From positions 15,365 to 79,364 of IMG/VR virus record IMGVR_UViG_3300010401_000002: 64,000 bases of DNA; one strand, given 5' to 3'. Below the pieces are notes generated by a model that was not told the origin of the DNA, made no database searches, and saw only the letters and a program-made list of their open reading frames with translations. This stretch comes from a virus. Both the position numbers and the translations under genes were made by a program. Each line of letters starts with the position of its first letter. Positions within the stretch are counted from its first letter, which is position 1. Positions 5,507 to 54,046 of the stretch are shown one piece after another.

Positions 5507-8500
5507 ATGGCAGAAGTATTAGATGCACCTGTACAAGAAGCACCTCAAACCGATAAGTTGGGGCAACTATATTCTGCATTAAAATCAGACCCTACATATA
5601 CCAATGTTTTGCCGGACGAAAAAGCGTTTCGTGAAACAATGAACAATCCCGAAAAAGCATCTGCATTGCACGATGTTTTGTTGCAGGATGAGACTTATAA
5701 AAGCGTAGTGCCAAAAGATTTCGCTGATTTTGCAGGAACGTTGGAGTTGGGGAAGAAGGAGCAGCCCGCTACACCGCAAGAGCCGCAACAACAACCTCTA
5801 ATTCAAAAAATAAACTCCCCCAAAATAGGTGTAGAAAAAAATCCATTTCTAAAGCCGTCCGATAATAACGGTATGGCAGCAGACATGAAGCAAATGACGG
5901 CTACAGGAAATCCAATGCCTGAAATCAAAAATGCTTTACAAGGAGCAATTATAAATCATAGTGCAGCAGGATTAAAAGATTTGGGAGTGGAATTACCCGA
6001 CTTGAATCCGAAAGATATAAACCCCGAAAAGCAAGGATTTGAGAAATCATATTCAGACAAATTAGTAAAATCATTCACCGATTCGCAGCAGTTAAAAGAT
6101 GAAATATTAGACAGCCCGAATTATCAGCAAAAGATTGCTAATGAGGTGTCAAAGAAATATTCAGTACCGCAACAAGATGTACTGAATTATATTTCTAAAG
6201 TAAACGATACCAAAAAAGACATTCGCTCAAACTTAGCCGACATAGCACTTAATCCACAAAACGATAAGGCTTATGGTGAATTGGGGAATAACTATTACGG
6301 TATAGGTGAATATGACAACGCTGAAAAGGCTTACATGGCTGCATTGAGCGTTGACCCTAATAGCGAAGGTGCAAAAAATGGATTAGGCAGCGTTGCATTA
6401 CAGAAAAAAGATTATCCAACAGCTGTGCAAATGTTTAGAGAATTGGCATCGGTCAATCCAAATACAGATAACATTTCGAAACTTGCAACAGCCGTATATG
6501 GCACAGGGGACTTTGCTAAAGCGCATGAATTAGCCGATGCTGCGGTTAATGCAGGCGGTGATATGCCAGATGCTTATGCACTAAAGATAAGGGCTGTAAC
6601 AAATGCAGTATTAGGCGATAACAAGCAGTCAATAGCGGACACAAAAGCAAGTGCTGAAATTGAAGGAATGAATGAGCAGCAAGGCGGTGGATATAAAGAT
6701 GAAAATGGCGTTCCAATTAATGAACATCAATTTACTCCAGATGAAATAAAGCAAAACAACTACGCAAGAGCATTAGAACAATTTGTTGATGTAGCACACG
6801 CTGTAATTGAAGGCGGATTTAATTTAATTCCTGAAACTATTGCCGCTAAAGCAATCATTCAAATCGGAACTGAATTATCGCACTACAACGACATTAAGGG
6901 TGACATGGCCGCGAAAGGATTTAATGAACGGCTTTCCGAAGATGTTGCGCGTGATGTTCGCATTGGTTTTGCAGCAGCAACGGTATTTAGCCCCGGTATC
7001 TTAAAATTCGCCCAACAAATGCAGGTGGCGGATATGGTATTGCCAAGTCAAGTGTTAGCAGGAGTAATGCAGCCTATTTCATCTTTAACCAACGAAGGCG
7101 CAAGTAACGCTGCAAAGAATTGGGCACAGGTTGGAGATGTAATTGCATCGCTATTAATATTTCATGGTGCAAATGAATTAGGTAGTAAGGGTTATAATCG
7201 CGCTATTGAATTGGGTGAAAAGATTAAGGGCAACATCGCTTTGACTAAGCAAGATGTTGCTGATATTGCAGATGGATTTAACGGAATTACACCCGCTACG
7301 GTATTTGCTATTGACAAGAATATTGCGGAGAATGGGGGGATTAATATAGATAAGAAGGCGGTGGATAAGTCTTTGATAAGCAATGACCAATTAGAACCAG
7401 AAAGCAAACAGGCCACAATACCGCCTGCCGACCAAAAAGAGCTATCTGATTTTGCAAAAGAAAAAGCGAGAATTAATGCGGAATACGAAAAAGATTGGGA
7501 TGGCTTATCTGACGAAGAAGTTAAAAAGCATCAAGACGACAATGAGGCAGTAATTGAAAAACGAAATGAGATTTTCGACAAATATGCTACGGACGCTGAA
7601 AAAAAACAACTTGCCAAATTAGGCAAGCAAACTATAATTGAAAAATTAAAGAAACGAAAAGCAGATGCCTATTTCAGAAAAGATAACTATATAGAAGATG
7701 TTGTTGATAGAATCGTAAAAGAAAATGTTGGCGAAGATATTGGTGCAGAGGAATCAAAGCCAGAAAACACTATTGAAAATAAGGTTGATGATGCAGTTGA
7801 AGCACGCATAGAAAGAAGATTAAAAAATAGAAATCTTACCGAGGCTAAAGGAAGCACGTTTTATGAGGACACAAATCTTAAAAACGCAAAAGTTGGAGAT
7901 GAAATTCACTTTAGCCAACGCGAGAACGGGGAATGGAAAGATTATAAAACAAAGGTAAAGAGTATAGTTGATGGCAAGATTATATTTGAAAACGGCAAAA
8001 CAGAAGATGATGTTTCGTCTTACATGAATATAACAGCAGAGGACGCATGGTTTGCTAAAAATCATCCGGAATTAACGCTTGATAAATCCTCGCAGTCCGA
8101 AAGCAAAGTTGAACCCGCCACCCAAGAACCCATACCCGAAACAGCATCAGCCGAACCCGAAAAGAAAAGTCTTGCAGGGGTTAAGCAAGAGGGTGAGGGT
8201 AAGGCAATGAATAGTGATTTAGAGAACAGGGTTTTTGAACACGATGGGGATATTAAATCTGAAATAAAAGCCATTGATAAAGCGCAGCATGAAAGGGGAA
8301 ACGTATATTATTTAGATTCCACTACACTAAAAAATGCGCCTAAAGAAACACTTGATGAAATAAAGGCTGCTTATAAACCAGTAATTGATAAAATTAAATC
8401 AGAACACGGGTCAGATGAAATAAGTTTATATCGCTCACAAGAAACATTTCCATCTGGCCTAATTCATAATGGAGAGTTTTTATCATTTACAACAAGGCCA

Positions 8501-11500
8501 TCATTCGCTAAATATTGGAATAAAGAAAAAATGTATAGAGATTTTCCTCTATGGTCATTTATTGCGGAAGTTAAAGTTCCCTTTGATGATATTGTGCTTC
8601 CCAAAACAAATTTAGGGCAATACGAGTTTGTCGTTGAGAACAAAGGCAAGACGAAAGAATATTTTGAAAAGCAGATTGAAATAAAAAAACAAGAGTTAGC
8701 GGCTGTTGGGTTAAATCAGAAATCAGATTCAGGGCATTTAGAGTTAGCGATTAAAGAAGGGCGTTTTCAGAAGGCTATTTCAGAAGGTAAAATGAAACAA
8801 AGTGACGCTATCGAATTGATAGAAGGCGCAGGTTTAGAAGTTCCCGAAGATATTAAACCTGCCGCTAACAAAGAATCAGCGCAGGTGGCCGAAGAAACAC
8901 CGCTAAAGAGTGACGTTACTGAACCCGTAAGTTCAAGTAGCACTTCGGAGAAACCCACCCCAGATGAATCCCGCCAATTTGCAATAGACTTTGTAAATCA
9001 CGATTTGGTTGAAGTGCAAAAAGCACCAACTAAAACTAAAGGCGAAAATAACCGTCCAAGCGGCACAAATACAGCAGCGCGATTAGATTTAGGCATGAGT
9101 AACGAAGAAAAGATTAGTGCTATAAAACAAATCAAATCGGGTAAATACGATGGAGTTGCGGCAAAAAAGTTGCTGGATAAACTTATTGATATGCACCAGA
9201 GGGATGATTTTGCATTTATTCAGGGTACAGGTGGTAATACTGAAATGGTGCAGGACAGACCTACAAGACAGAATCTACATGAAGCAATTGAGATTGCGAA
9301 ACTTACGGATAGCGAATATGATAAGCAGGCAGAATTAGATAATAAAATTGCAGACCACATTGCCGAACATGGGATTACAACAGTTGAAGATGTTACGGCA
9401 TTAGAAGGTTTTCCATTAAGCCATGAAGATGCTGAATTAATTAAAGAATATTTAAAATCAAAAACAGATGGAACAGACAAAGAAAGCACCAACACAGAAT
9501 CAGTTGAAAGTAGCAGCAAAAGCAAAGATACTTCTGCAAAAAGCAAAGAAGTGGAAGATGACCCAAACAGGCGAAAAGCCGAAGCAGATTATGAATCAGA
9601 ATTAGCCGACAAGCAAAAAGCGGTTGATGATGCCAAATCGGATTACGATAAGGCACTAAAGAAAATAAATAAGAGTGGTAACGTGTTGTTTGAAAATGTT
9701 ATGGGGGTTGAGGCTGATGTACAGCACAATCCAGAAGCAGCAATAAAACCGTTTAAAGAAAAACTTGACAAAGCGAAAGGTCTATTATCTGAATTTGAAA
9801 ATAATAAAGATAAGTATATAGATGAACGTTATAAGAATCAACAGGATTTATTTAATCAAAAACAATTAAAAGAAACGGAGGCCACAAATGCCATTCAAGA
9901 GCAAAGCACAACAAAGGTATCTGGAAGCGAACCACCCAAAGGGAGTGAATCTAAAGGAGTGGGAGAAAGCAACAAACTTCAAGAAGTTGCCGGAGAAGGT
10001 GAAGCCGGGAAAGAAAAAGTAACCCCACCAAAGCCCAAACTCAAATTCAAGCGCAACACCGAAAAGATTAGCAACCTCGATGATGAAATAAAATCGCTTA
10101 TCACAAAGTCAAGAGGCGAAACTAACACCTTAGTAAACTTTGGTGATGCAGTAAAAGTGGTTGCAAAGCTAATTGAGCGCGGCATCTATAAGGCAGAAGA
10201 TATTGCAAAGTATCTAATTGAACGCGGTTACAATGACGTTGTGCCCCATATAAAAGATGCACTAAAGCACATTAAAGAAAACTTTGAGTTAGACCCCGAA
10301 GTTAAAACAGCATTGAATAATGATGCTTTACAACAAGGTCAGACAGGAGTACGTCACGCAGATGTTGATGTAGATGCTGAATTAATGGGAATGAACCCTG
10401 TTGAGAAAATGCAGGCTATACCACGTATTGAATCAGAACAGTCGGCAAGAAAGATTTATGAAAGTCAAAACATGGCCGCAAAGGTTATTGATTTGAACGA
10501 AAAGCCGCGACCAATTAATAATGACGAACAAGGCGCATTGCAATTATACATTGCAGAACTAAAGAGAAAATCTGCGGCAATATTTGACCAATGGCAGCAG
10601 GCAAAACTTGCGGATAATACCGAACTTGCAGATGAACTGAAAATACAGTTAGATGATATTCGTGACGGACAACTTACCCCTGCATGGCAGGCATTAAAAA
10701 ACACCCGTAGCCAAGCCGCAAGAACATTAGGTAATTGGGAACGTGCAGTAGGCGGTGAAATGCAGTTTGAAGATTTGCGCATGGATTATATGCGGGCTAA
10801 GAACGTTACAGAAGTGCCGCCAGAAATTGAGGCGCAACTCAAAAAGGCAGCAGATGAATATGCTGAACTTGAAAAGAAATATAATGATGCTTTAGCCGAA
10901 GACCAAGCAAAGGCAGCGAAGATTGCAGCACAGGAAAAGTTACTTGCCGAAAAGCGTGAACAGGAACGCGAATATGTAAAGCAAAAAATAAAGTCACGTC
11001 ACGTTGAGAAAGCGCAACAGGTAAAAGAAATTGACGAGCGCATTGATAAACTCAAAGAACGTGCAAGGGTTGTACTGAAAAAATCATTAGGCCAGATGCA
11101 CGATTTAGGCGGTGCATTAAAAACTTCATTGGAGTTTGCAGATGTTGTAAAAGATATTGTGAACGAGCATATCAAAAAAGGATTGATTGAGGGTAAGGTT
11201 AAGTTTGAAGATATAATTGACAAAGCGCACCAAGACCTGCATGAAATATTTGAGGATATAACCACCCGCGATATTCACGAAATTTATTCTGATTATGGTG
11301 TAGTAAAGAAACCGCGTGTAGATGATTTGGCAAAAGCAAAGCGTGAAATCAAGGCAGAGGCTTTTTACGCATCAGCAACAGCAGAAGCCAAAGAAGGAAC
11401 GCCACCATTTAAAAGAGTAAACCCCGGCAAAGAATCACCCAACGTTCGTGCGGCAAGGCAGGAAATGGAAGAAGCGATGAAGAATAGCGGCATCGAATGG

Positions 11501-13930
11501 GACAAACGACCACTTGCCGACAGGAGAAAATCTGCATTGGATAAGACTAAGCAAACGTTACAAAATCAGATTAACGATTTAACTAAGGCGGTTGAAGACG
11601 ATAAGATTATTCGCAGAGAAAGAAATAATGTTACGCTTGATGAAGCCGCAGACAATTTGGTTAAACTACGTGACGAAGCAAAAGAAATCTACAAGGAACA
11701 TTTTGGCGATGAACTGAAAGCGATTGATGATGCACGTAAAATTAAAACCGTACAGCAGGCATTAGATAAACTTAATAAGCGTATTGAGAAAGGTGACTTT
11801 ACAGATAAGGTTACAGAAAAGACAACCAACGCAGATTTGATTGCTATACGTGAACAGTTAAAAGATGCACATAAAAAGTTTGCTGAACTACGTGAGATTG
11901 CCGACCCCGAATACAACAATCGTAAATACAATGAACGATTAGAAAACGCCTATAACAAACTTGCAAAGAAATATGCAGAGCGTGACGAGAATCAGCAATA
12001 TGCCAATAAAGCAAAAACCACGCAGGTTATAAGCGATAAAACATTTGCAGCATGGAAAGCAAAAGAGGCGGCAAAACGAGCATTTGAGCGAAATAAATTA
12101 AGGTGGGAACGCGATAACCAAACGCGGCCAATGAAGATTGCTACAAGGGTATTGAGGTATATTCGGCAAGGCGCAATTTCCCGCCCAAGTGCAATATTAA
12201 AGTTAGGTGCATTTGCCTTACAAGAAGTTGCTTTTAAACCGTTAATTGACAGAGGTATTGCAAGAGGCATAACCAAAACAATATTTCCAAAATTAGCGAA
12301 ATCGGTTTGGGAAGGTCAGCATATACCTATTTCAGAAGAAGTAAAAACCATGAAAGCAACATGGGATAAATTTGGTGAAGAAGCAGTAAAGATTTGGAAA
12401 ACAGGTGAAGGCAGCATTGATGTTGCAGGCAAGAAAGTTCACTTAGAACCATCGCTTATTGAAACGTTTGGTATAATACACACGATAGAAAAGTCTTTGA
12501 TTAAAAATACCACATTTGGATTATCATTTCAAACAAGACTTGAAATGGCAAGACGCAATGGCGAACCTGTTGATAATGAAGCCTATCAGTTTGCTATATG
12601 GAAGGATGCCTTAAAAGATGCAAACCGTTCAATATTATTAGGTGATAATTATGCAATGAATATGTATAAGCGGGCTTTTCAGATTACAGGAAAAGAAAAC
12701 CCTACTGAATACGCTGCAAAATTCTTAGCCAATTTCTTAATGCCTGTTGTAAAGGTTGGAACTAATTTTACACTACAATCTTATGAAAGAAGTTTTGGAA
12801 CATATACAGGTACAGCGAAATACATTATTCATAAAGCCCTTGCAGAAACAGGACAAACGGCATTAGAGAAAATGACACCCGCACAGCGCGAAAGAACCTA
12901 TCGTATGATTAATAACGGTATGATGGGCACTGCATTGGGCTTAATCGGTTGGTACGGCTATAAAAACATTGGCGGTTATTATATACCTAACCAAAAGAAA
13001 AAGGATAGTGATGTAAAAGAAGGTGATATTAAATTAACCGATAGCATGACTATCCCACACCTGCTACTTCATAATCCACGTCTTGCACCTTTACTTATCG
13101 GGGCAACAGCGCATAAGATTTTGGATTATCAATTAAAGAAGGGTAAAATAAAAGATGCTGATTATAAAGATGTTCTTAGCGGTTTGTATGCTGCAAGTTT
13201 AGGTATATACGAAGAAAACCCTTTTGCGGTAAGCGGGGAACATCTATCAAAACTTACTGATATGAGCAATATCGGAACCAATGCCACTGATTTATTAGTT
13301 AAGCCTTTTATACCGGGAGTGATTCAGGAACTTGCCGTACAGCATGACAATTATATTAACGGCAAAGGTACATGGGCAAATCTGAAAACAGGTAATTTAA
13401 TGGAACGTAAAGCACATTCGCCTACAGAAGATTTAGAACTTGCAATACCTTATTTAAGAGAAAATGTAACGGCAGGGAGTTCTTATCCTATTAGTGATAC
13501 CGCAAAGAAAATGTTTGAAGATAATGATGTGCCATTACCTACCCGTTTCAAACCCACCAAAGACCCCGAAACAAACGAGCCGTCCGCAACAATTCAAGGT
13601 GTGCATATACCTATTAATGAGGAGCAGGCTAAAGCGGTGGATAAGGAGATGGAGCAGATTATAACGAAAGAGGTTGAGGCAAGGACGAAAGGCGCAGGTA
13701 AATTTCCCGAAATAAATTCATCACATAAAGAGCATGAAGTAAAGAAGGCTATGCTGAAAGGATTGTCTGCAAAAACTTTAAAAGATGAAATCGCTGACAT
13801 AAAGGAACGAGCGAAAGAAGTTGCGCTGGTAAGATTAGGTTATGCTACCAAAGAAGCAATCAAAGCTGGCATCAAAGAAAATAAGGCAGAAGCGAAAAAT
13901 AAAGCTGATGAATTAAAGCATAATAAATGA
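5507..13930 (+). CDS. Giant polyvalent virion/ejection protein with TPRs and ADP-ribosyltransferase-like domain
   Basis: 2807 aa. TPR consensus at nt ~6269-6640; ART-like LYR...SFTT...QYE at nt ~8426-8626; long coiled coils; helical C-terminal region. Confidence 0.7.
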   Translation: MAEVLDAPVQEAPQTDKLGQLYSALKSDPTYTNVLPDEKAFRETMNNPEKASALHDVLLQDETYKSVVPKDFADFAGTLELGKKEQPATPQEPQQQPLIQKINSPKIGVEKNPFLKPSDNNGMAADMKQMTATGNPMPEIKNALQGAIINHSAAGLKDLGVELPDLNPKDINPEKQGFEKSYSDKLVKSFTDSQQLKDEILDSPNYQQKIANEVSKKYSVPQQDVLNYISKVNDTKKDIRSNLADIALNPQNDKAYGELGNNYYGIGEYDNAEKAYMAALSVDPNSEGAKNGLGSVALQKKDYPTAVQMFRELASVNPNTDNISKLATAVYGTGDFAKAHELADAAVNAGGDMPDAYALKIRAVTNAVLGDNKQSIADTKASAEIEGMNEQQGGGYKDENGVPINEHQFTPDEIKQNNYARALEQFVDVAHAVIEGGFNLIPETIAAKAIIQIGTELSHYNDIKGDMAAKGFNERLSEDVARDVRIGFAAATVFSPGILKFAQQMQVADMVLPSQVLAGVMQPISSLTNEGASNAAKNWAQVGDVIASLLIFHGANELGSKGYNRAIELGEKIKGNIALTKQDVADIADGFNGITPATVFAIDKNIAENGGINIDKKAVDKSLISNDQLEPESKQATIPPADQKELSDFAKEKARINAEYEKDWDGLSDEEVKKHQDDNEAVIEKRNEIFDKYATDAEKKQLAKLGKQTIIEKLKKRKADAYFRKDNYIEDVVDRIVKENVGEDIGAEESKPENTIENKVDDAVEARIERRLKNRNLTEAKGSTFYEDTNLKNAKVGDEIHFSQRENGEWKDYKTKVKSIVDGKIIFENGKTEDDVSSYMNITAEDAWFAKNHPELTLDKSSQSESKVEPATQEPIPETASAEPEKKSLAGVKQEGEGKAMNSDLENRVFEHDGDIKSEIKAIDKAQHERGNVYYLDSTTLKNAPKETLDEIKAAYKPVIDKIKSEHGSDEISLYRSQETFPSGLIHNGEFLSFTTRPSFAKYWNKEKMYRDFPLWSFIAEVKVPFDDIVLPKTNLGQYEFVVENKGKTKEYFEKQIEIKKQELAAVGLNQKSDSGHLELAIKEGRFQKAISEGKMKQSDAIELIEGAGLEVPEDIKPAANKESAQVAEETPLKSDVTEPVSSSSTSEKPTPDESRQFAIDFVNHDLVEVQKAPTKTKGENNRPSGTNTAARLDLGMSNEEKISAIKQIKSGKYDGVAAKKLLDKLIDMHQRDDFAFIQGTGGNTEMVQDRPTRQNLHEAIEIAKLTDSEYDKQAELDNKIADHIAEHGITTVEDVTALEGFPLSHEDAELIKEYLKSKTDGTDKESTNTESVESSSKSKDTSAKSKEVEDDPNRRKAEADYESELADKQKAVDDAKSDYDKALKKINKSGNVLFENVMGVEADVQHNPEAAIKPFKEKLDKAKGLLSEFENNKDKYIDERYKNQQDLFNQKQLKETEATNAIQEQSTTKVSGSEPPKGSESKGVGESNKLQEVAGEGEAGKEKVTPPKPKLKFKRNTEKISNLDDEIKSLITKSRGETNTLVNFGDAVKVVAKLIERGIYKAEDIAKYLIERGYNDVVPHIKDALKHIKENFELDPEVKTALNNDALQQGQTGVRHADVDVDAELMGMNPVEKMQAIPRIESEQSARKIYESQNMAAKVIDLNEKPRPINNDEQGALQLYIAELKRKSAAIFDQWQQAKLADNTELADELKIQLDDIRDGQLTPAWQALKNTRSQAARTLGNWERAVGGEMQFEDLRMDYMRAKNVTEVPPEIEAQLKKAADEYAELEKKYNDALAEDQAKAAKIAAQEKLLAEKREQEREYVKQKIKSRHVEKAQQVKEIDERIDKLKERARVVLKKSLGQMHDLGGALKTSLEFADVVKDIVNEHIKKGLIEGKVKFEDIIDKAHQDLHEIFEDITTRDIHEIYSDYGVVKKPRVDDLAKAKREIKAEAFYASATAEAKEGTPPFKRVNPGKESPNVRAARQEMEEAMKNSGIEWDKRPLADRRKSALDKTKQTLQNQINDLTKAVEDDKIIRRERNNVTLDEAADNLVKLRDEAKEIYKEHFGDELKAIDDARKIKTVQQALDKLNKRIEKGDFTDKVTEKTTNADLIAIREQLKDAHKKFAELREIADPEYNNRKYNERLENAYNKLAKKYAERDENQQYANKAKTTQVISDKTFAAWKAKEAAKRAFERNKLRWERDNQTRPMKIATRVLRYIRQGAISRPSAILKLGAFALQEVAFKPLIDRGIARGITKTIFPKLAKSVWEGQHIPISEEVKTMKATWDKFGEEAVKIWKTGEGSIDVAGKKVHLEPSLIETFGIIHTIEKSLIKNTTFGLSFQTRLEMARRNGEPVDNEAYQFAIWKDALKDANRSILLGDNYAMNMYKRAFQITGKENPTEYAAKFLANFLMPVVKVGTNFTLQSYERSFGTYTGTAKYIIHKALAETGQTALEKMTPAQRERTYRMINNGMMGTALGLIGWYGYKNIGGYYIPNQKKKDSDVKEGDIKLTDSMTIPHLLLHNPRLAPLLIGATAHKILDYQLKKGKIKDADYKDVLSGLYAASLGIYEENPFAVSGEHLSKLTDMSNIGTNATDLLVKPFIPGVIQELAVQHDNYINGKGTWANLKTGNLMERKAHSPTEDLELAIPYLRENVTAGSSYPISDTAKKMFEDNDVPLPTRFKPTKDPETNEPSATIQGVHIPINEEQAKAVDKEMEQIITKEVEARTKGAGKFPEINSSHKEHEVKKAMLKGLSAKTLKDEIADIKERAKEVALVRLGYATKEAIKAGIKENKAEAKNKADELKHNK
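9468..9605 (+). CDS. Candidate nested 45-aa basic protein (+1 frame inside giant gene)
   Basis: ATG after an A/T-rich tract; MEQTKKAPTQNQLKVAAKAKILLQKAKKWKMTQTGEKPKQIMNQN*; the host frame here is a low-complexity S/T/E/K linker. Confidence 0.35.
   Translation: MEQTKKAPTQNQLKVAAKAKILLQKAKKWKMTQTGEKPKQIMNQN
9888..10022 (+). CDS. Nested 44-aa MPFKSKAQ-type small phage protein (+1 frame inside giant gene)
   Basis: GGAGG at 9877-9881; MPFKSKAQQRYLEANHPKGVNLKEWEKATNFKKLPEKVKPGKKK*, matching from recall a small phage protein pattern MPFKSxAQxR..W...KLP. Confidence 0.65.
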   Translation: MPFKSKAQQRYLEANHPKGVNLKEWEKATNFKKLPEKVKPGKKK

Positions 13931-16437: not shown

Positions 16438-18843
16438 ATGGACGCACAGAATTACGCCACCGCAACGGTACGCACAGCACTCCCATACGCCACAGACGTA
16501 AAAAATTTAGAATTTATCGAATGTAAGCGTCAACCGCTATACGTTACCGAAGCGTATAAGTTTGCTAAAAACTGTTACGGGCAAAGTCAATATTTTTTAA
16601 ACGTTGCCCGCAATCAGGTAAAAGACTGCTACAATATTCGCGTTGATGTAAATACTATTGAATCGTCTGTAACGGAAGGTATTAACAGGGGCATTGTCAG
16701 AACCCGCATACACGAAGAAGTAAAAGAGAACAGGGATTTTTATTATGGATTGCAGAATGACAACCTCATGGCGTGGAGTGCGAACAATCTTTCCATCAGC
16801 GTACCGGGTCAAGACTTAAAGAAGTACATTAATCACATGGACGGTGTTCAAACCGCAATGATTAAGCCTATTAAAAAAGGAATAAACACCACCATACTTG
16901 ACAGTAGTTCCATTGAAAAAAAGAAAGGATTCTTAACCCTATGCCACTTGATTATTGACAACAGGGATTTGTTTAAAGAAATGGAGGCAAAAGGTGTTGT
17001 TATACGAAACCCGTTTGCTGAAATAATTCCCAATATAACCGATATTGAAATTGAAGATATAAAAGATATTGAGGATGCTTGGCGTGATGAATACGAAATT
17101 GAATCTGAAATATTCCTTAACAACCTGTATCAGTTTTATGATATGGAGGAATGTTTTTTAAGGCAGTCAAAAACAAATCTAATTGAGGGTGTTTCAACAA
17201 TCATTTTGGAAGATGATGGATTGTATTACAAGCCTGTACAGGTAAATGCTATACAGGCAATGATTGATATTGATTGCAACGACCAATATGGCCGCGACAT
17301 GATGCGGTGGGGATATGTTGACTATTTGACTTACGAAGATGTGTGTGCCTTAGTTCCTGATATGGACAAGGATATGAAAGCCGATATTTATAACCTATGT
17401 TATACCAACGACCAGCAAACAACAGATTGCTTAAACTATCTTCAAGCAGGCTTTGACAATATAAAATGGATAAACCCTGATAATAAACGAATAGCTGTTG
17501 TGAAAGGATGGTTTATTGCGCCACGTAATAAGCGTTATAAGGAGCGTGAAACAAAATTTGGTGATAGTTACATTGATATAATTGAAAACGAAAGAAAATA
17601 CACCAACAGGTTTTTAGATGTTCCGCAACCCGATGGTGTATTAGGCGCTGATATACGCGGTGATTTTGACGAGTGGGATATTCATAAGTATATGATGATA
17701 CTTAATAAGTATGTGTTTAATTATGGTTATGAAAGAATTGTTTATCGCACTACACAGGAAAAATGGAAGCCACAGCCTAATGCAATTCAATTTATACACG
17801 ACCGTTCACAGGCAATGTTTCGTTCACCTGCTGGACGTTTAAAATGGAATCAATTAGAAAAAGACAGGCTAAAGAAAAAGATTGTTCAACTTACTGCAAA
17901 AGATAAGGGTCGCAATCTTATGGTTTATGCTGATGAACTCACAGATGGATTAAAAGGTCTGATTGAAGATTTTGATGCACAAGGTATATCATTGAAGTTA
18001 TCACCCAAAGTTGACCATAATCCGCAGGGGAATAACAATCAGATTAATACTGTTTCGGAGGTGGTGGATTTATCGCTCTCAAACACTGTGTTGTCTTACT
18101 TAGAGCTTATCCGTTCGGAGAAACAGGAGATGAATGAAATTGCAGGGATTTCAGAGATTCAGCTTGGTCAGGATTCACAGACTATGGGCAAAGGCGTGAG
18201 GGAGGCAAGAGTAGCGGCAAGTCAGCAAGGATTAGTGTCGCAGTATGAATCGTTTGGGAAGTTCTGTACTATTACATTGCAGAGGTTTTTTGATTATAAT
18301 AAGTTATGCCTTCCTCAAATCAAAAATGAGGAGAATCTTTTCATAAGCAAAAGAGGAGAGAATTTATTTGAGTTTACGAAGGAGTTAAGTACGGCACAAA
18401 TCACCTTGCATATTGATAGTGTGACTGAAATTGACCCCAAAGAAAAGGATGGTATAATCATGGCTGCGGGCGCAATGGCGCAGCAATCACAGTACTTACA
18501 GGACGTAGGTGTATCTCCTATGTTACCATTTCGGCTAATGCGGGCAACTAACACCGACATTGCGCTTGCGGAAGCAGAACGTTCCATTAGAAAATCACAA
18601 AAGAAATTTGCTGCAACACAAGCTGCTAAATTTAAGTCTGAACAAGATAATGCTGCACAAGCTAATCAAGTGCCTATACTTTTAGAAAAAATGAAACAGG
18701 ACAATGAAAATTGGCGCACCACCCAAACGAACGAGGTCAAAGCGATGACAGCGAAAATGGATAAGACTATGGAGTTTTTACAATTGCTTATGCAGCAACC
18801 GGAACCGGGGGATGGACAGCCTACGCAATCTCAACCCGCGTAG
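16438..18843 (+). CDS. Portal protein (crAss-like)
   Basis: 801 aa directly after TerL; helical, with EIAGISEIQLGQ crown-type segment and Gln-rich coiled C-terminus. Confidence 0.8.
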   Translation: MDAQNYATATVRTALPYATDVKNLEFIECKRQPLYVTEAYKFAKNCYGQSQYFLNVARNQVKDCYNIRVDVNTIESSVTEGINRGIVRTRIHEEVKENRDFYYGLQNDNLMAWSANNLSISVPGQDLKKYINHMDGVQTAMIKPIKKGINTTILDSSSIEKKKGFLTLCHLIIDNRDLFKEMEAKGVVIRNPFAEIIPNITDIEIEDIKDIEDAWRDEYEIESEIFLNNLYQFYDMEECFLRQSKTNLIEGVSTIILEDDGLYYKPVQVNAIQAMIDIDCNDQYGRDMMRWGYVDYLTYEDVCALVPDMDKDMKADIYNLCYTNDQQTTDCLNYLQAGFDNIKWINPDNKRIAVVKGWFIAPRNKRYKERETKFGDSYIDIIENERKYTNRFLDVPQPDGVLGADIRGDFDEWDIHKYMMILNKYVFNYGYERIVYRTTQEKWKPQPNAIQFIHDRSQAMFRSPAGRLKWNQLEKDRLKKKIVQLTAKDKGRNLMVYADELTDGLKGLIEDFDAQGISLKLSPKVDHNPQGNNNQINTVSEVVDLSLSNTVLSYLELIRSEKQEMNEIAGISEIQLGQDSQTMGKGVREARVAASQQGLVSQYESFGKFCTITLQRFFDYNKLCLPQIKNEENLFISKRGENLFEFTKELSTAQITLHIDSVTEIDPKEKDGIIMAAGAMAQQSQYLQDVGVSPMLPFRLMRATNTDIALAEAERSIRKSQKKFAATQAAKFKSEQDNAAQANQVPILLEKMKQDNENWRTTQTNEVKAMTAKMDKTMEFLQLLMQQPEPGDGQPTQSQPA

Positions 18844-21524: not shown

Positions 21525-21595
21525 CTGAACATACTATATGTATTGCCTACGTGCATCCGAATTATTCTTAGTTATCCCAATTTAACTTTAATTCA

Positions 21596-22678
21596 ATGAG
21601 CAACATAAAAGGCAAATTAGAACAATCATTACGAGCAATCCCACCAAACCTATCAGACGAACAAACCGTAGCGTGGTTTAGAAGTATGCTTGCTACTATA
21701 GCGCAGGAGGTTGATGCGGTGTTATCATCAGCAGGTGTATCGTCTTTCAATACACGAACAGGGGCTGTAACACTTACAAGTGGCGATGTATCAGGAGCAA
21801 GCGGACTGCTTACTACGGGGGCAAACGCGGGTTCAACAGCAGCACCAACCGATTTTGGGGGAACTTTCGGAATAAAAGTTGACGCAATTGATTCTTCAGG
21901 AACAAGCATGATTTCGTTCGCTAAGATGATTGGCGTCAAGGAATACACATCAGCACAAGAGGCGTTGCTTGTACCCGGTTCAGGTGCGGTTATTATAAAC
22001 ACTGATATTGTTACGGGTGGTGCGGTAAGACGCTATACGGGGTCGGCTTGGGTAACGGTTGGTGGCGGCGGCCTCTCCCCCACAGGCAGCGATGTAGGGG
22101 CGACAAGTCAGGCGCAGGTGTTTACGAATGGATTAATCTCTAATGTGTTACAGGCTAATACAGGAGGACGAACTTTATTAAAAAATAATGCTGGTGATGC
22201 TTTTTTGAAAACGAGCGTTGGCGGTTTTGACGTTGAAGTGGGTGATTCTAATGCGGCAGCTAATGGCACATTATTAACTGTTTCGGATTCCGCTGAAACC
22301 ATTTCATTAAAAGCTGATAATGGTGTTCTTTTGCCTGACGACCAAATAATTGGTGCAGGTGCAAATGCTAAAATGGCTTTCAACCAATCAGCCCAAACAG
22401 CCACGATAACGGCTGCTAATGGGGTGAGTACGAGTGCGGGGTTTACGGTTGGAACAGACCTACTAACCAATTCCATTAAAAATAACGGAGGCAACGCAAT
22501 TGTTATTACACAGACTACAACAAACCCTATCACGATAAATTCTGGGACAGGGATATTAGAACTTAATCTGCCTGTAGATGGATTGTCTATGAACGGCGGC
22601 ACAGGGTACACAGGCACATTAGCCCAAGCTATAAGTGACGGTGCAACTATTGAAAACGGAATAATTAAAAACCCTTAA
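21596..22678 (+). CDS. Fibre-like structural protein
   Basis: VSSFNTRTGAVTL fibre motif, YTGSAWVTVGGGG; Gly/Thr/Ala-rich beta structure. Confidence 0.65.
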   Translation: MSNIKGKLEQSLRAIPPNLSDEQTVAWFRSMLATIAQEVDAVLSSAGVSSFNTRTGAVTLTSGDVSGASGLLTTGANAGSTAAPTDFGGTFGIKVDAIDSSGTSMISFAKMIGVKEYTSAQEALLVPGSGAVIINTDIVTGGAVRRYTGSAWVTVGGGGLSPTGSDVGATSQAQVFTNGLISNVLQANTGGRTLLKNNAGDAFLKTSVGGFDVEVGDSNAAANGTLLTVSDSAETISLKADNGVLLPDDQIIGAGANAKMAFNQSAQTATITAANGVSTSAGFTVGTDLLTNSIKNNGGNAIVITQTTTNPITINSGTGILELNLPVDGLSMNGGTGYTGTLAQAISDGATIENGIIKNP

Positions 22679-42488: not shown

Positions 42489-45400
42489 TCATTTGATGTT
42501 TGATAAGGGGTAGGAATTAATAATAATGCCACATTCAATCTCTACCTTGTTGTCTAATGTATCATAGCCGTGTAACTCTTTAAAGTGGTTCGCGTTCTTT
42601 CTTATCTGGCTATGCTTATATGACGCTTCTTTCAATGCCGAACCAACTTCATCAACACACTTAGCCCTTATATTAATTATCAATTGATTTCTAACCCTAT
42701 CGGTTAATTTAAAATCAATAACGCTTTCTAACCACCTTACTATTCCTTCGCTTGTCTGTATCATTTCAAATTATATTTCTTTTTAATTATATCCATCGGT
42801 ATTCTGTCCAACTCTTCTTTAAATTTAATCTGCCCATTCAAGGCCTCCTGCATTTGTTCAGCCAATTCATCGCCAAACTCTTGCCGTATTTCTTCAATGG
42901 TCATTTCTTTGACAACGGGGTTGTTTCCACCAAAATAATCATAATCTTGGTTTAAGCAGATGCAGTCTAAGAAATAGAATCCGCATTTATCGCAACGTAG
43001 TTCTTCTGCTGTGTCCATTACTTTTCCTCCAATAGTTTAATAAGTTTTAATACCCAATCTAAAGTTACGTTTTCTCTGACTTGTACTTGTTCCAAACTGT
43101 AATCAGAAATAGTTATTACCCACATATCTGATTCCTTATATGCTGTCACAACCGTGTCCGGGGCAATGTGTTTATAATAATCTATGCCATCTGGCGTAAA
43201 TCCGTGTTGTAGTAGTTCGTTCACTTATTCAACTCCTTTACATATTCAATTATATCCTTAGTAGAACTTAGTTTTGATGGATGATTGCCTAACAATCTTT
43301 TTGCTATCACCTTTATTTCATTAAGTATGGCTACTTCTTCATCCTCTGTAATACCACAATCTTCATCGAACATAAAGAAGTCTGCTTCCGCTAAATGTAT
43401 TGCCGAATGTATTGTGGCTATTTGTTTTATTTCTAAAGTTTTCATTTCTCTAAATGCCTATAATTTATCCTGTTATTCTCCGCCAACATTTCATACAGCC
43501 TTTCTAACAATCGGTTAGACTGTAGTGCCTTGAAGTATATCCGTTCGTTTCGGGCCTGCTGGCCGAGGCGTTTGACGCGAAGGATTCTGTTGTTTATGTT
43601 GTTGTTCATTGGGTATTACAAATTAATCTTTTCCTTTAAAATAAAATCTCTAACCATAATATACCGCTCTTTAAAATCTGCATTTTTAATAGTTAGCTTT
43701 TCAGCCTTTCTTGTTGCTACTGATACTGCGCTATGAGAAATGTCGCTGTACTTTGCTAAATTCATGCAGCCCCTTTGATAGTTGCTTTCCTTTGCTTTTG
43801 GATAAACAAATTCAGATACCAAAAGAAAAATTAAATAACGAACGTGGAGGTGTTCGTAGCACCTGCTTTTAGAAAATACAGATTCTTTTTTTACTTTCAG
43901 ATACTCATAAACAGCATCTGCAATTTTCTCAATTGTTAATCCCTGTAAATCTTCGGGTTCTGTGTCCATTATTATTTTTTGCCTGAAAACAAGATAATCT
44001 TCAACCGAAAATCCGTTTACATGAAACTGAAACCATCCGTAACTATCAGTGTATAGGCGACCTTCTTTACCATCCCAATAATAATCTTTTTGCGATACTT
44101 TTATTCGCTTTAGTTGTGGCATCTTTTCATCGTGCCCGTTTGTTGGGGATAGGTTCATAGCGTTGTTATTTCCCTCTGAACATACAAAACAACAACCTCA
44201 CAAGCGGCCAATACAGATGCGCTTGCCAATGCTTTTAGTATCGCTTCGGGGTTGTCAAAGTATAGGATTTCCTTTTCCATGCCATCATCTATACGTACTT
44301 GGCTAAATCCTTTGCCGTTCCAATAATCACCGTATATGTTGCGGATTGCGCTGCGTTGGGTCATTATAACAGTTTTTACTGTTTTTGTTGAACATAATTT
44401 ACAAACGAATCTATGCTTATTGCCTAAGAAATGATTTCCACAACGGCTACATATGTTTTCATAGTTGCCGTTTTCTTTCTCGTAATCCTCTGGCCAATTG
44501 CCTTTGTATTGGAATAGGTCAGCAACCGATTGGTGAGGCGCAAGTGCGTAATCTGGGTGTGAACGTTGCCTTTCTTCTTTGTCCATACCTAACTCATTCG
44601 GATTGAACATTGCTTTGTGTATAGTTTCAAATACGCCTTTAATATACTCATTGTGAGCTTTGGCCTGTTCTTTATTTTCCATTGTTATTTATTTAACGTT
44701 TTTATCATTTCCTTAATTTCATCATCAACCGCGTCTGAATCAACCAATGCCCCAATACTTTCAGTGGCGCAATGGAAGCAAAATTCAATACTTACATAGT
44801 AGCTTTTTGCTATATTAGTTCCATCGTGCGTATCTGCCGAAGTGTAGTTTTTTAATTCAACTTTCTTTCCCTCCTTCAACCCTATTTCAAGTAGTTGCAG
44901 GAATCGTTTAATGTCAGCTTTTGTTACTAAATTCATTTTGTTTCTGTTTATAAATTTCAATTATTTCCTTAAAACTCTCTTTAGAAATTCGTTTAATGTC
45001 ATAGATTTTACACCACCTCATACAATCATCATAGTAGAAAGTTCCCCTATTCCCCTCCACCCTAACCTGTACCGTCTTTTGGGTGTAGCGGTTGTCGAGG
45101 CGGATTCGGGCGGAAACCACAAAGGAGAAATTCATTTTACTATCTTTAAATAATCCGTTTTATCCTTTGGATTGAAGTTGCCGTTTACTAATATGTTGCA
45201 GCAGATGTTGGCTAACATTGCGTTGGTTGAATGTTGGTGTGGCATACCTGCATTTTCCCACCCCATGTAAATATCTTCCATTATCTTAAAGTCATCGGTA
45301 TTAAAGCCCTTTATGTTTTTATAATTACCGTCACAGTAATCACCATCTTTTCTTGGGTCAATACTATTACCTAATCTTATTTGAGATAACATTAACCCGC

Positions 45401-47583
45401 CACGCTGACAAACCTCGCAACCTTTAGGGAGGTTGTTTAGCCTTTGCTGAAAGATTTTCGCGTTTTTTGCATTGTCTGCAAATACCTCTATTGCGCCATC
45501 CCAATAGTTACGGCCTGCGCTAATCATTCCCCTTACCACCAACTGCAAACAATCCCATGCAATCTCTAACCGCTTTCCTTCATCGGTTAATTCGTGAAAT
45601 GCTTTGTTTCTTTTTTCTAAATTGCGTATCTTTTGAAGTACGCTTGTAAATTTGATTTGTGGAATGATTTTCATTTTGTGATGTTTTTATTTGTTATCTA
45701 ATATTGCTTTAATTGCTCTTGCTTGTTGTAATGTAATACCTAATGAACCGTAAGATGTTAAAACGTCTTTTATTTCTTTTTCGAGTGTGCGCTTTTCCTG
45801 CATATCCAATATGTGCTGCTTAGTTAAATATAATTGATAGTTCCATTGGCTGTACTCTTTGTTTTCATACCTTAGATTTTCAAGAGTTATTTTATTTTGC
45901 CGCCAACTCACACTTTCTCCCTCAACCTCAAAATACTTTCTCCCTACTTTAATAACCGTTACCTCTTTAATTTGCGGGGGTTCGTTTCTGCTGAACACTT
46001 CTCGGTATAATTTCTGCCCTACTTCTATTTTCATCTCAATGCCCTCACAATTAAATTCTTTCCCCCTACGTGCGTGTTAAGGTGTTCTTTCATTTCAACC
46101 GCTTTACTATAACTCCTTAGCGGGTTGCCGTTTAAATCGCGTGATTTATATAATTCATCCGCGCCTGTTTCTGTTATCTGGAAGATAGCGAATAGGGCTT
46201 TCGTTTGGGTGTGGTGGCGTTTCATGCTGATTCCTCGCTTTCTTCTTCTTCTTCTTCATCGCCAAAGTCCCCTATAATATCCTTGCACAGTTTAAGGAGC
46301 TTTACTTTATACTTCTCTTCCGTTTCAGAAAGTTTATTGTTATCTGCCATTGCGGTATAGTAATCTTGTAAATCGCGGTAGGTGTTTTCAAACCTACAAT
46401 AACCCATGTTTGCCATTTTGTTTCTGATTTAATTGTTACCTGTTTATTTTTCTTGCTTTTCTCCCCGCCTTACTCTTTGCCCGATTCTTTCTTTGCTTCG
46501 GGGTTAATGGTGTCTTTGGGCGTTCCTGTTTGAAACGGGGTGCAGGTGCGTTCATCATCGCTTCACCCAATGCTGCGAAGGCTGATAATTCTAAAAGTTT
46601 TGATTTGATGCTCATGCTGTTTTTGAATTTTGTTTATTAATTATTTTAATCACATTGTTTACTTCTTTTTGGGACACCTTCATTATCCCGCTTCTCCTTA
46701 CAGATGTTGGTACAAAATAGTAGTATCCTCTATCATCCTTTTTAAAGGAGTTGCTTTTTATTAAATCAATTATATCTTTTTGTTTGCTGCTTAGTTTCAT
46801 AGCGACCTGTCCCCTTCCCCTTTTTTGTCGGAATCTGATTTAACGTTGTCAAGATACGCAACCGTATTGGCATAGCTGAATCTTTCTATTTCTAAATCCA
46901 TTACAGGCGCATCCATTTCTTCTGCCTCGTCAATATTATTCCTGCGGCAATATGCTGCCGCTTCTTTTTGTGCTGTTTCCCGATTGTCGCACATTAGGTT
47001 TAATGTTCCTGCGCCTGTTGTTCCTTTCCATAATTGAAAGATGTAGTTATTCATGGTCGCCTCCTTCTGTTATATCGAGTTCCATATCGGGGAGTTCATT
47101 CTGCCTGTCAAGAAGTGCCAACTCTAACATTTCATAAAGCATTGGCGTTGCTCCGTATTTGTTGTAATGTTTTTCGAGCTGCCCATAGGGCATATCGTAA
47201 TCCTTTGCGGTTTGGCTGATGAAAGGGCTTTTGTGTTCCATAATGTTTGAGCATTAAAGTGTTTGAGTTAAATTTTCCTTTGTCTTATTAATCAGTTTGC
47301 CACATTCTCTAAGTAACTCTGGCGTTAGTTCTACGGATGAATCAATGGCGTTGTATAGCTTTTTGAGGGCGGTTAACAGTTCCCTATTCTGCTCCATCAA
47401 CTCCACCGGGCTTAGACCTGTTTCATTAGCTACGTTGAAGGCTTCCGCGATTAGGGTGGCGTTGGCTATATCTTCCTGCTGTGAAAGTTCTTTTTCTTCA
47501 TAGCCTGTATCATTGGTGTAGATAGAATATTGACCATCTCCGTAGCTTCTTACTTTTACCGCTCCTTTTGTGTGATGCTTCAT
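42489..47583 (-). other. Array of small early/host-takeover-type hypothetical genes
   Basis: More than 15 coupled minus-strand ORFs of 60-180 aa. Confidence 0.6.
43616..44158 (-). CDS. Protein with DnaA C-terminal (domain IV)-like HTH
   Basis: TIEKIADAVYEYLKVKKESVFSKSR....VRYLIFLL ... SHSAVSVATRKAEKL follows the DnaA domain IV pattern. Confidence 0.6.
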   Translation of the reverse strand: MNLSPTNGHDEKMPQLKRIKVSQKDYYWDGKEGRLYTDSYGWFQFHVNGFSVEDYLVFRQKIIMDTEPEDLQGLTIEKIADAVYEYLKVKKESVFSKSRCYEHLHVRYLIFLLVSEFVYPKAKESNYQRGCMNLAKYSDISHSAVSVATRKAEKLTIKNADFKERYIMVRDFILKEKINL

Positions 47584-53517: not shown

Positions 53518-54046
53518 AAAAATATAAAAAATTTGTAGAACCCAATACCATCAACGATTTACAGTTCAGTATATGTTAAAATACCACGCGTTAGGGTGTT
53601 ATTACGACAATTCCGTGAACGTGCTTTAAACGGAGGTGAAAAACATAGCCGGTTACAAACGTGTAGGTAGTTAGTTAGTTTCGGAGGCAACGATAAAATA
53701 AGTTAATGTAGAAAATTCAGTTGGTTAAATTTAATTTCAAGTAATCGGCAATCCCCTACAAGTTGGAAATGTGGTTAATCGGAAATGCCGACAGACCATC
53801 TAACCTGAACCACCACATCGAAAAGTCGTGTCGGTTAAATCGGGGAGGGGGATAGCTAACAAACCAAAAATGCAAACAGGGGGTTACATAACCCGTTTAA
53901 AATGCGCGACAATGTCGTTTTTAACCAAATCTACGCACTATCTTAGGTGGTGTGGCGTTACCCACTTCCGCGTGCGAGGCGGAGGAGGGGTAAAAGGCCG
54001 AATAGTGGCATAAAAAAACAGGCTCATTTCATCAAAAAATAAATCC

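Follow-up and report, generated by a model that had tools for sequence, protein, structure and literature searches.

A likely dual-coding locus in a phage genome: a 44-codon gene of a widespread family nested in the +1 frame of a giant, probable virion-protein gene

The DNA analysed here, referred to as the window, is a stretch of 64,000 nucleotides (bases 15365-79364) of IMG/VR record IMGVR_UViG_3300010401_000002, a complete 79,364-bp virus with direct terminal repeats. It contains a giant open reading frame (ORF) whose product is probably a virion protein and in which a TPR region (amino acids 254-360) is the sole recognisable domain. Inside this ORF, on the same strand and one base out of register, lies a second ORF of 44 codons, and we propose that positions 9888-10022 are likely to be a true dual-coding locus, encoding both a 44-amino acid basic protein and a linker of the giant protein. 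The features of the locus are as follows.

5507..13930, + strand: giant ORF of 2,807 codons (8,424 nt; P0002), from the ORF track and domain scan
5507..9886, + strand: N-terminal module(s) of the giant protein, a mosaic with only short domain islands common to other giants
9877..9881, + strand: GGAGG, a possible ribosome-binding site, with the 6-nt spacer CCACAA before the nested ATG
9888..10022, + strand: nested 44-codon gene (P0001), from the sequence and its homologues
9887..10024, + strand: giant codons 1461-1506, a Gly/Ser/Glu/Lys-rich linker on the bases common to the small gene
10007..10013, + strand: heptamer G GGA AAG, placed so that a -1 shift would lead from the small frame into the giant one, with the small stop three codons further on
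10023..13930, + strand: C-terminal module of the giant protein (amino acids ~1505-2807), a stand-alone protein in other phages

The nested gene runs from an ATG at 9888-9890 to a TAA at 10020-10022, as read from the sequence, and since (9888-5507) mod 3 = 1 it occupies the +1 frame of the giant ORF. An earlier interpretation made from the letters alone (hereafter the sequence-only reading) had described this ORF, its 44-residue peptide, the GGAGG ending 6 nt before its ATG and a low-complexity linker in the giant frame; each of these is exact in the sequence, and the giant-frame reading, which begins NAIQEQSTTKVSGSEPPKGSESKG, is rich in Gly, Ser, Glu and Lys as quoted there. It is homology, and not length or the GGAGG, that places the nested ORF beyond chance. 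Five ORFs of at least 44 amino acids begin with ATG in the +1 frame of the giant gene, so that length alone is not remarkable against chance expectation, and only the ORF at 9888 has relatives. No credible homologue or PHROGs match was found for the other four (45-62 amino acids; 9150-9335, 8469-8612, 13524-13661 and 9468-9602), which are probably chance products of Glu/Lys-rich coding sequence. The GGAGG is weak evidence for a gene, because the window phage rarely uses Shine-Dalgarno sites: such a motif, GGAGG or otherwise, is absent from 56 of the 75 predicted genes in the window, and upstream of nested copies in other phages the sequence is mostly A-rich rather than GGAGG. The A-rich regions upstream of window genes resemble those of Bacteroidota phages. 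The start region of the nested ORF is unstructured (RNA fold z-score -0.11, nothing above shuffled controls), and a search for an internal promoter, a terminator or RNA structure returned nothing exceeding shuffled controls. As a separate observation, GGAGG occurs 50 times on the + strand of the window and 20 times on the - strand, and a strong GGAGG-type site precedes a handful of small genes (starts 29344 and 36045, and 42761-43018 and 46797-47054, both on the - strand); as most genes have no such site, translation start signals of two classes seem to coexist in one phage.

The nested peptide belongs to a family of small proteins recognised by the start MPFKSKAQ. It is basic, with 13 Lys plus Arg and 4 Asp plus Glu, and it opens with MPFKSKAQQR, followed by a central helix with W25, the motif FKKLPEKVK and the tail KVKPGKKK. 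When 5.8 billion predicted proteins were searched with the peptide, 30 small ones, 41-77 amino acids long, matched it (E 2e-10 to 0.9), 17 of them at E <= 1e-3, the best at E 2e-10 with 81% identity. Across these 30 homologues M1-R10, K32, L34 and P35 are invariant, a Trp is often found in the central helix and the tail consists of Lys and Arg. The family as a whole can be described by T..FKKLPE after an aromatic or Trp-containing helix, a Lys/Arg-rich tail and a total length of ~41-60 amino acids. The nested peptide has all of these (T29, F31, K32, K33, L34 and P35 are present); all ten of its N-terminal residues match the invariant columns, and every invariant residue is kept. A profile of the family, run against 1.84 billion cluster representatives, matched 3,101 proteins at E <= 1e-3 and 400 at <= 1e-10, nearly always with the domain starting at residue 1 and in proteins of 45-617 amino acids; the family is therefore a micro-protein and an N-terminal module alike. 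With 30 small proteins, 3,101 profile representatives and the 89 free loci described below, the stand-alone homologues named in the sequence-only reading do exist.

In the window genome the nested ORF is the sole copy found with the family profile, at 77.7 bits, a score to which the peptide contributes as a row of that profile. An AlphaFold2 model of the peptide, of moderate confidence (predicted local distance difference test 72.6), places helices at residues 6-14 and 22-28. Longer relatives match phrog_1375, a PHROGs family without known function, over their first ~45 residues (E 5e-8 to 1.5e-3), with no other PHROGs match. The nearest named ESM Atlas cluster is DUF3008-like (score 0.87); the Pfam model itself (PF11450, gathering threshold 24 bits) does not match the peptide and matches 1 of 31 relatives, at E 0.016. 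A tblastn search of the peptide against GenBank phages gave chance matches only (E ~6), and the Elemovirus copy described below was reached with other family members as queries. Literature on the MPFKSKAQ motif, DUF3008 and Elemovirus was searched and nothing relevant was found.

To place the nested copy among its relatives, 160 loci were gathered from IMG/VR and JGI metagenomes by means of the intact peptide, and 134 non-redundant copies were classified as follows.

Free-standing copies: 89 of 134
N-terminal in-frame fusions: 16 of 134
Nested in a longer same-strand ORF at offset +1: 29 of 134
Nested at offset +2: 0 of 134

Four GC-rich nested copies (L026, L036, L061 and L125), which are counted in the 29 but were excluded from the tree and from the codon-composition test, are probably chance-open frames. 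The hosts of nesting are of two kinds and span genomes of 31-66% GC. Giant hosts comprise that of the window and ORFs of 3,203 (L017), 2,427 (L018), 1,191 (L025), >2,014 (L054), 4,381 (L079), 1,664 (L093) and >1,957 (L151) codons, and these giant proteins have little or no BLAST-detectable similarity to one another. The others are ~17 genes of ~390-440 codons that lie between a portal gene (phrog_6547) and a gene for a capsid-like structural protein, which is the usual position of a scaffolding gene. In every phage examined the gene is present once only, without relics, and decayed copies turned up in none of 16 loci. Most nested ATGs have a stop 1-9 codons upstream.

The arrangement also occurs in a cultured phage. 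In Flavobacterium phage vB_FspP_elemoC_14-1A (Elemovirus) the coding sequence QMP84890.1, for a 'structural protein' of 3,694 amino acids, harbours at its codon 1220 an intact +1-frame family member of 42 amino acids (L162 9001-9129; MT497067.1 ~53581-53709), and this ORF is unannotated. The region is at least 99.8% identical across 68 records (elemoC_14-1A and 67 sisters) and is therefore uninformative for substitution analysis. Standard gene callers exclude same-strand nested genes, and it is for this reason that a conserved micro-protein stands unannotated in giant genes, including those of the 68 Elemovirus records. Two expectations of the sequence-only reading are answered here: start and stop recur in other giants, the +1 ORF being intact in further metagenomic giants, in that of Elemovirus and in the ~17 scaffold-position genes, and standard annotation does miss such a gene, even in a cultured phage. 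A further record, MW202828.1 of an uncultured Caudoviricetes, has the nested-ORF island (9608-9738, - strand) as its only nucleotide similarity to the Elemovirus giant gene; its giant gene is labelled 'reticulocyte binding/rhoptry protein', an evident mis-annotation.

We then asked which frame the substitutions follow. Fourteen scaffold-position genes were aligned on the host protein, and pairwise differences were taken per host codon position (1/2/3).

Bulk of the host gene: 0.33/0.22/0.49
60 codons past the overlap: 0.37/0.22/0.46
Inside the overlap: 0.30/0.16/0.21

Inside the overlap host position 1, which is the third position of the small frame, becomes the most variable, and the overall rate is lower too. 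Among 11 giant-nested copies the differences at small-frame positions 1/2/3 are 0.39/0.35/0.54, and amino acid identity is 51% for the small frame vs 29% for that of the host. In nested copies the codon-position entropy is still highest at small position 3, and in the 89 free copies third positions are fully degenerate (entropy 0.97/0.96/1.64), with Ser5 alternating between AGY and TCN codons. These data support purifying selection on the small frame within the overlap, as judged from the pattern of substitutions, and the possibility raised with the sequence-only reading, that such selection might be confined to the giant frame, is not what the overlap differences and the two identities show.

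The host frame has left its own mark. Among free copies from genomes of <50% GC the frame equivalent to that of the host is open in 0 of 43, with the other alternative frame open in 6. In AT-rich genomes nested and free copies compare as follows.

Third-position T: nested 3%, free 23%
Third-position G: nested 53%, free 29%
Phe codon: nested always TTC, free TTT and TTC
Net charge of the host frame: nested -12.0, free +3.5
Net charge of the small protein: nested +13.4, free +13.2

For the window itself, the peptide was kept constant while synonymous codons were drawn at random according to the codon usage of the phage. Only 0.4% of these draws left the giant frame open, and 98.7% of those that did gave a more basic linker than the real one. 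Codon choice shows the wobble positions of the nested gene to be, by all appearances, tuned for the host frame. The small-frame substitution pattern, together with the reshaped wobble T and host-frame charge, indicates that both frames are probably under selection, and the dual-coding claim of the sequence-only reading accordingly gains from homology, recurrence, small-frame substitutions and host-frame codon tuning. That reading had also taken the linker for a by-product of an embedded ancestral gene. The ancestry is supported by the free relatives and the separate C-terminal module, but a passive by-product the linker is not, because the silent sites of the small gene appear adjusted for the host frame.

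Two observations support the view that the small gene is older than the reading frame enclosing it: many of its relatives stand free, and elsewhere the C-terminal module of the giant is separate. P0033 (1,198 amino acids) is 41% identical to this module and its first Met aligns right past the nested stop, P0034 (1,434 amino acids) is a stand-alone version of the module, and the locus L163, which is without an MPFKSKAQ family member, has it as a stand-alone ORF of 1,518 amino acids (8543..13099). Because the C-terminal half of the giant is a separate gene elsewhere, the nested gene sits at a module junction. In phages with related giants (L003, L060, L137 and L127) the small gene lies a few bases past the giant's stop, as the last gene of the operon, and the Elemovirus giant is collinear with that of L060, with the small gene nested at codon 1220 in the one vs free at the end in the other. 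A tree built on 46 columns is weakly resolved and scatters the giant-nested copies among free ones, its well-supported branches forcing at least 3 changes between the nested and free states. On our reading the small gene would be old and persistent and the giant genes mosaics, with nesting having arisen or been transferred several times, and always, as we read it, in the register that would turn Lys codons into Glu, Gln or Gly codons and not into Arg or Cys codons.

The N-terminal part of the giant carries further signs of its mosaic make-up. Part of the L093 giant (amino acids 617-782, ~10170-10670) resembles amino acids 1115-1308 of the window giant (~8850-9430) at 30% identity (E 7e-12); in L093 this domain follows the nested ORF and in the window it precedes it, and its position on opposite sides shows that modules have been shuffled around the small gene. 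Separately, amino acids 753-874 of the window giant (window 7763-8128) form an island that is 60-72% identical to otherwise unrelated long proteins on other contigs; one carrier is labelled Candidatus Woesearchaeota archaeon and is probably a phage contig binned into a metagenome-assembled genome.

Several explanations other than dual coding have to be weighed. The small gene might be an untranslated passenger, swallowed when flanking genes fused, serving as linker only and still intact because the fusion is recent. A fusion did occur, as follows from the C-terminal module being separate in relatives, and ORFs of the nested length are not rare in the giant +1 frame; moreover, translation of the nested ORF is inferred. 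However, the intact arrangement is found in 9 giant and 17 scaffold-position genes, in genomes of 31-66% GC and in hosts diverged beyond BLAST recognition, overlap substitutions follow the small frame and not that of the host, all family-invariant residues are retained and the 16 loci hold no decayed copies, all of which makes a passenger improbable. The reverse possibility, that the conservation belongs to the giant frame, which has a [DN]A[IV]Q.Q[SG]T motif here, or to an RNA or DNA element, with the +1 ORF incidental, we regard as barely credible. It would account for the nested Pro codon being only CCA or CCG, which gives host Ile or Val, and for the base before the ATG being mostly G or A, which gives host Asp or Asn. 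Yet the 89 free copies keep the peptide with degenerate third positions and no enclosing ORF, Ser5 alternates between two codon families, identity in the host frame is below that in the small frame, and the fold z-score noted above is unremarkable.

Frameshifting would be another way to use both frames. A -1 slip at G GGA AAG from the small frame would join the small domain, as an N-terminus, to the 1,300-amino acid C-terminal module, much like the natural in-frame fusions, or a +1 slip from the giant frame would end in early termination. The register of the window heptamer is right, the domain often forms the beginning of proteins of 100-617 amino acids and the start of P0033 aligns directly past the stop of the small ORF. 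Against this, only 5 of 29 nested vs 28 of 89 free copies contain a canonical slippery heptamer, which is therefore neither enriched nor conserved, the stop 1-9 codons upstream of most nested ATGs limits entry by +1 slippage, and the start region has no structure beyond shuffled controls, a downstream stimulator not having been sought. The heptamer at 10007-10013 is probably coincidental, and a frameshift at this locus seems very improbable. As a general mechanism the -1 frameshift found no support, the heptamer not being conserved among nested copies.

Some observations weigh against dual coding and should be set beside the evidence for it. An hmmscan of the nested peptide against Pfam and PHROGs gave no match, and when the phrog_1375 model was run on a six-frame scan of the phage genome the nested ORF was the only candidate, but a weak one (E 0.065, 10.3 bits). 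The fused relatives contain no Pfam domain and their partners are without recognisable domains, and a PDB profile search for the family returned no solved homologue (best E 2). No close relative of the window giant gene was found in IMG/VR; the substitution tests by frame were therefore made on other nested members, and a window-specific ratio of non-synonymous to synonymous substitution rates is impossible. Gathering by the intact peptide misses decayed nested copies, L163 being the only locus found independently. Finally, we infer that translation starts internally, and independently, at the nested ATG, a process with which ribosomes on the giant frame would interfere.

Even so, dual coding remains the explanation that we favour. 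In this model a two-helix protein of 44 amino acids would be read from its own ATG on the messenger RNA of the giant gene, and one base out of register the same nucleotides would supply a flexible linker (giant codons 1461-1506) that joins two modules of the giant protein. The reading frame of the flanking large genes would have been extended through the older small gene, the wobble positions of which would then have been retuned to keep the host frame open and non-basic.

Gene neighbourhoods may hint at a function. Free copies belong to head and packaging modules, where they occur in the orders TerL-small-portal, small-TerS-TerL and TerL-small, and also after TerL and an unidentified 679-amino acid gene of portal size. 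Nested copies are found within structural genes. Where the module is fused it is always N-terminal, often on long low-complexity or coiled-coil proteins, and this placement would suit a docking or targeting role, or one in binding DNA or the capsid interior. It is possible, although we put it forward only tentatively, that the small protein acts in head assembly or DNA packaging, for example as a capsid-interior, portal-proximal or DNA-associated component. The window has a portal gene of the same family as the scaffold-position loci.

16438..18843: portal gene (phrog_6547), 2.5 kb downstream of the giant ORF

Prediction of a complex between the nested peptide and this portal did not support binding, a result that counts neither for nor against it. 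A more doubtful idea is that the +1 register is itself functional. Lys-rich codons of the micro-protein, shifted back by one base, read as a Glu/Asp-rich stretch of the giant or scaffold-position protein, and the basic micro-protein (~+13) would pair with this acidic host segment (~-12); as a charge-matched pair, an acidic docking or DNA-mimicking segment would hold the basic head-module peptide until DNA is packaged. If this were true, repeated capture would have been selected for co-expression and pairing and not for genome economy. Beyond the portal gene, the window ORFs at 21568-22002 (- strand, 144 amino acids) and 21596-22678 (+ strand, 360 amino acids) show a near-complete overlap on opposite strands.

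Should dual coding be correct, the locus would matter in several ways. It would offer a natural and replicated case in which to study codon sharing by two proteins, the small gene would show where modules meet in the mosaic giant virion proteins that aquatic phages carry, and a very common head-module protein would become testable in a culturable phage-host pair (Elemovirus).

An embedded-gene architecture as such is already known, as with Rz1 in Rz and E in D of phiX174. The Rz/Rz1 spanin pairs of phages of Gram-negative hosts are reportedly either embedded or separate neighbours. The present locus is alike in that a small gene lies wholly inside a larger gene of the same strand in the +1 frame, nested or separate across phages, and in that standard gene callers miss the embedded partner; both its geometry and the apparent selection on two frames would agree with a gene-in-gene arrangement of the Rz1-in-Rz type. 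It is unlike them in having no sequence relation. The nested peptide is basic and soluble-looking, where Rz1 is a lipoprotein made with a signal sequence, and its host is not a lysis gene but a giant structural gene or one at the scaffold position. With the G/GT frameshift of lambda it shares a GGGAAAG heptamer, which we take to be identical to the lambda slip site, in register near the end of the small ORF, but the heptamer of the window is not conserved among nested relatives. In phiX174-like phages E within D and B within A are overprinted, and in classical overprinting the internal ORF is young and lineage-restricted. Here too two proteins would come from the same bases and both frames mark codon choice; unlike in phiX174, however, the internal ORF appears old and widespread and the host frame across it derived. 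A classical de novo internal ORF was rejected, most family members being free-standing or N-terminal domains. The usual direction of overprinting would thus be reversed, an old small gene having been engulfed by larger frames at least 3 times on a weakly resolved tree. What is new in relation to these systems is the family itself, an ancestry that runs the other way, a register that does not vary, codon tuning that mirrors charge between the frames and a breadth that includes unannotated copies in cultured phages.

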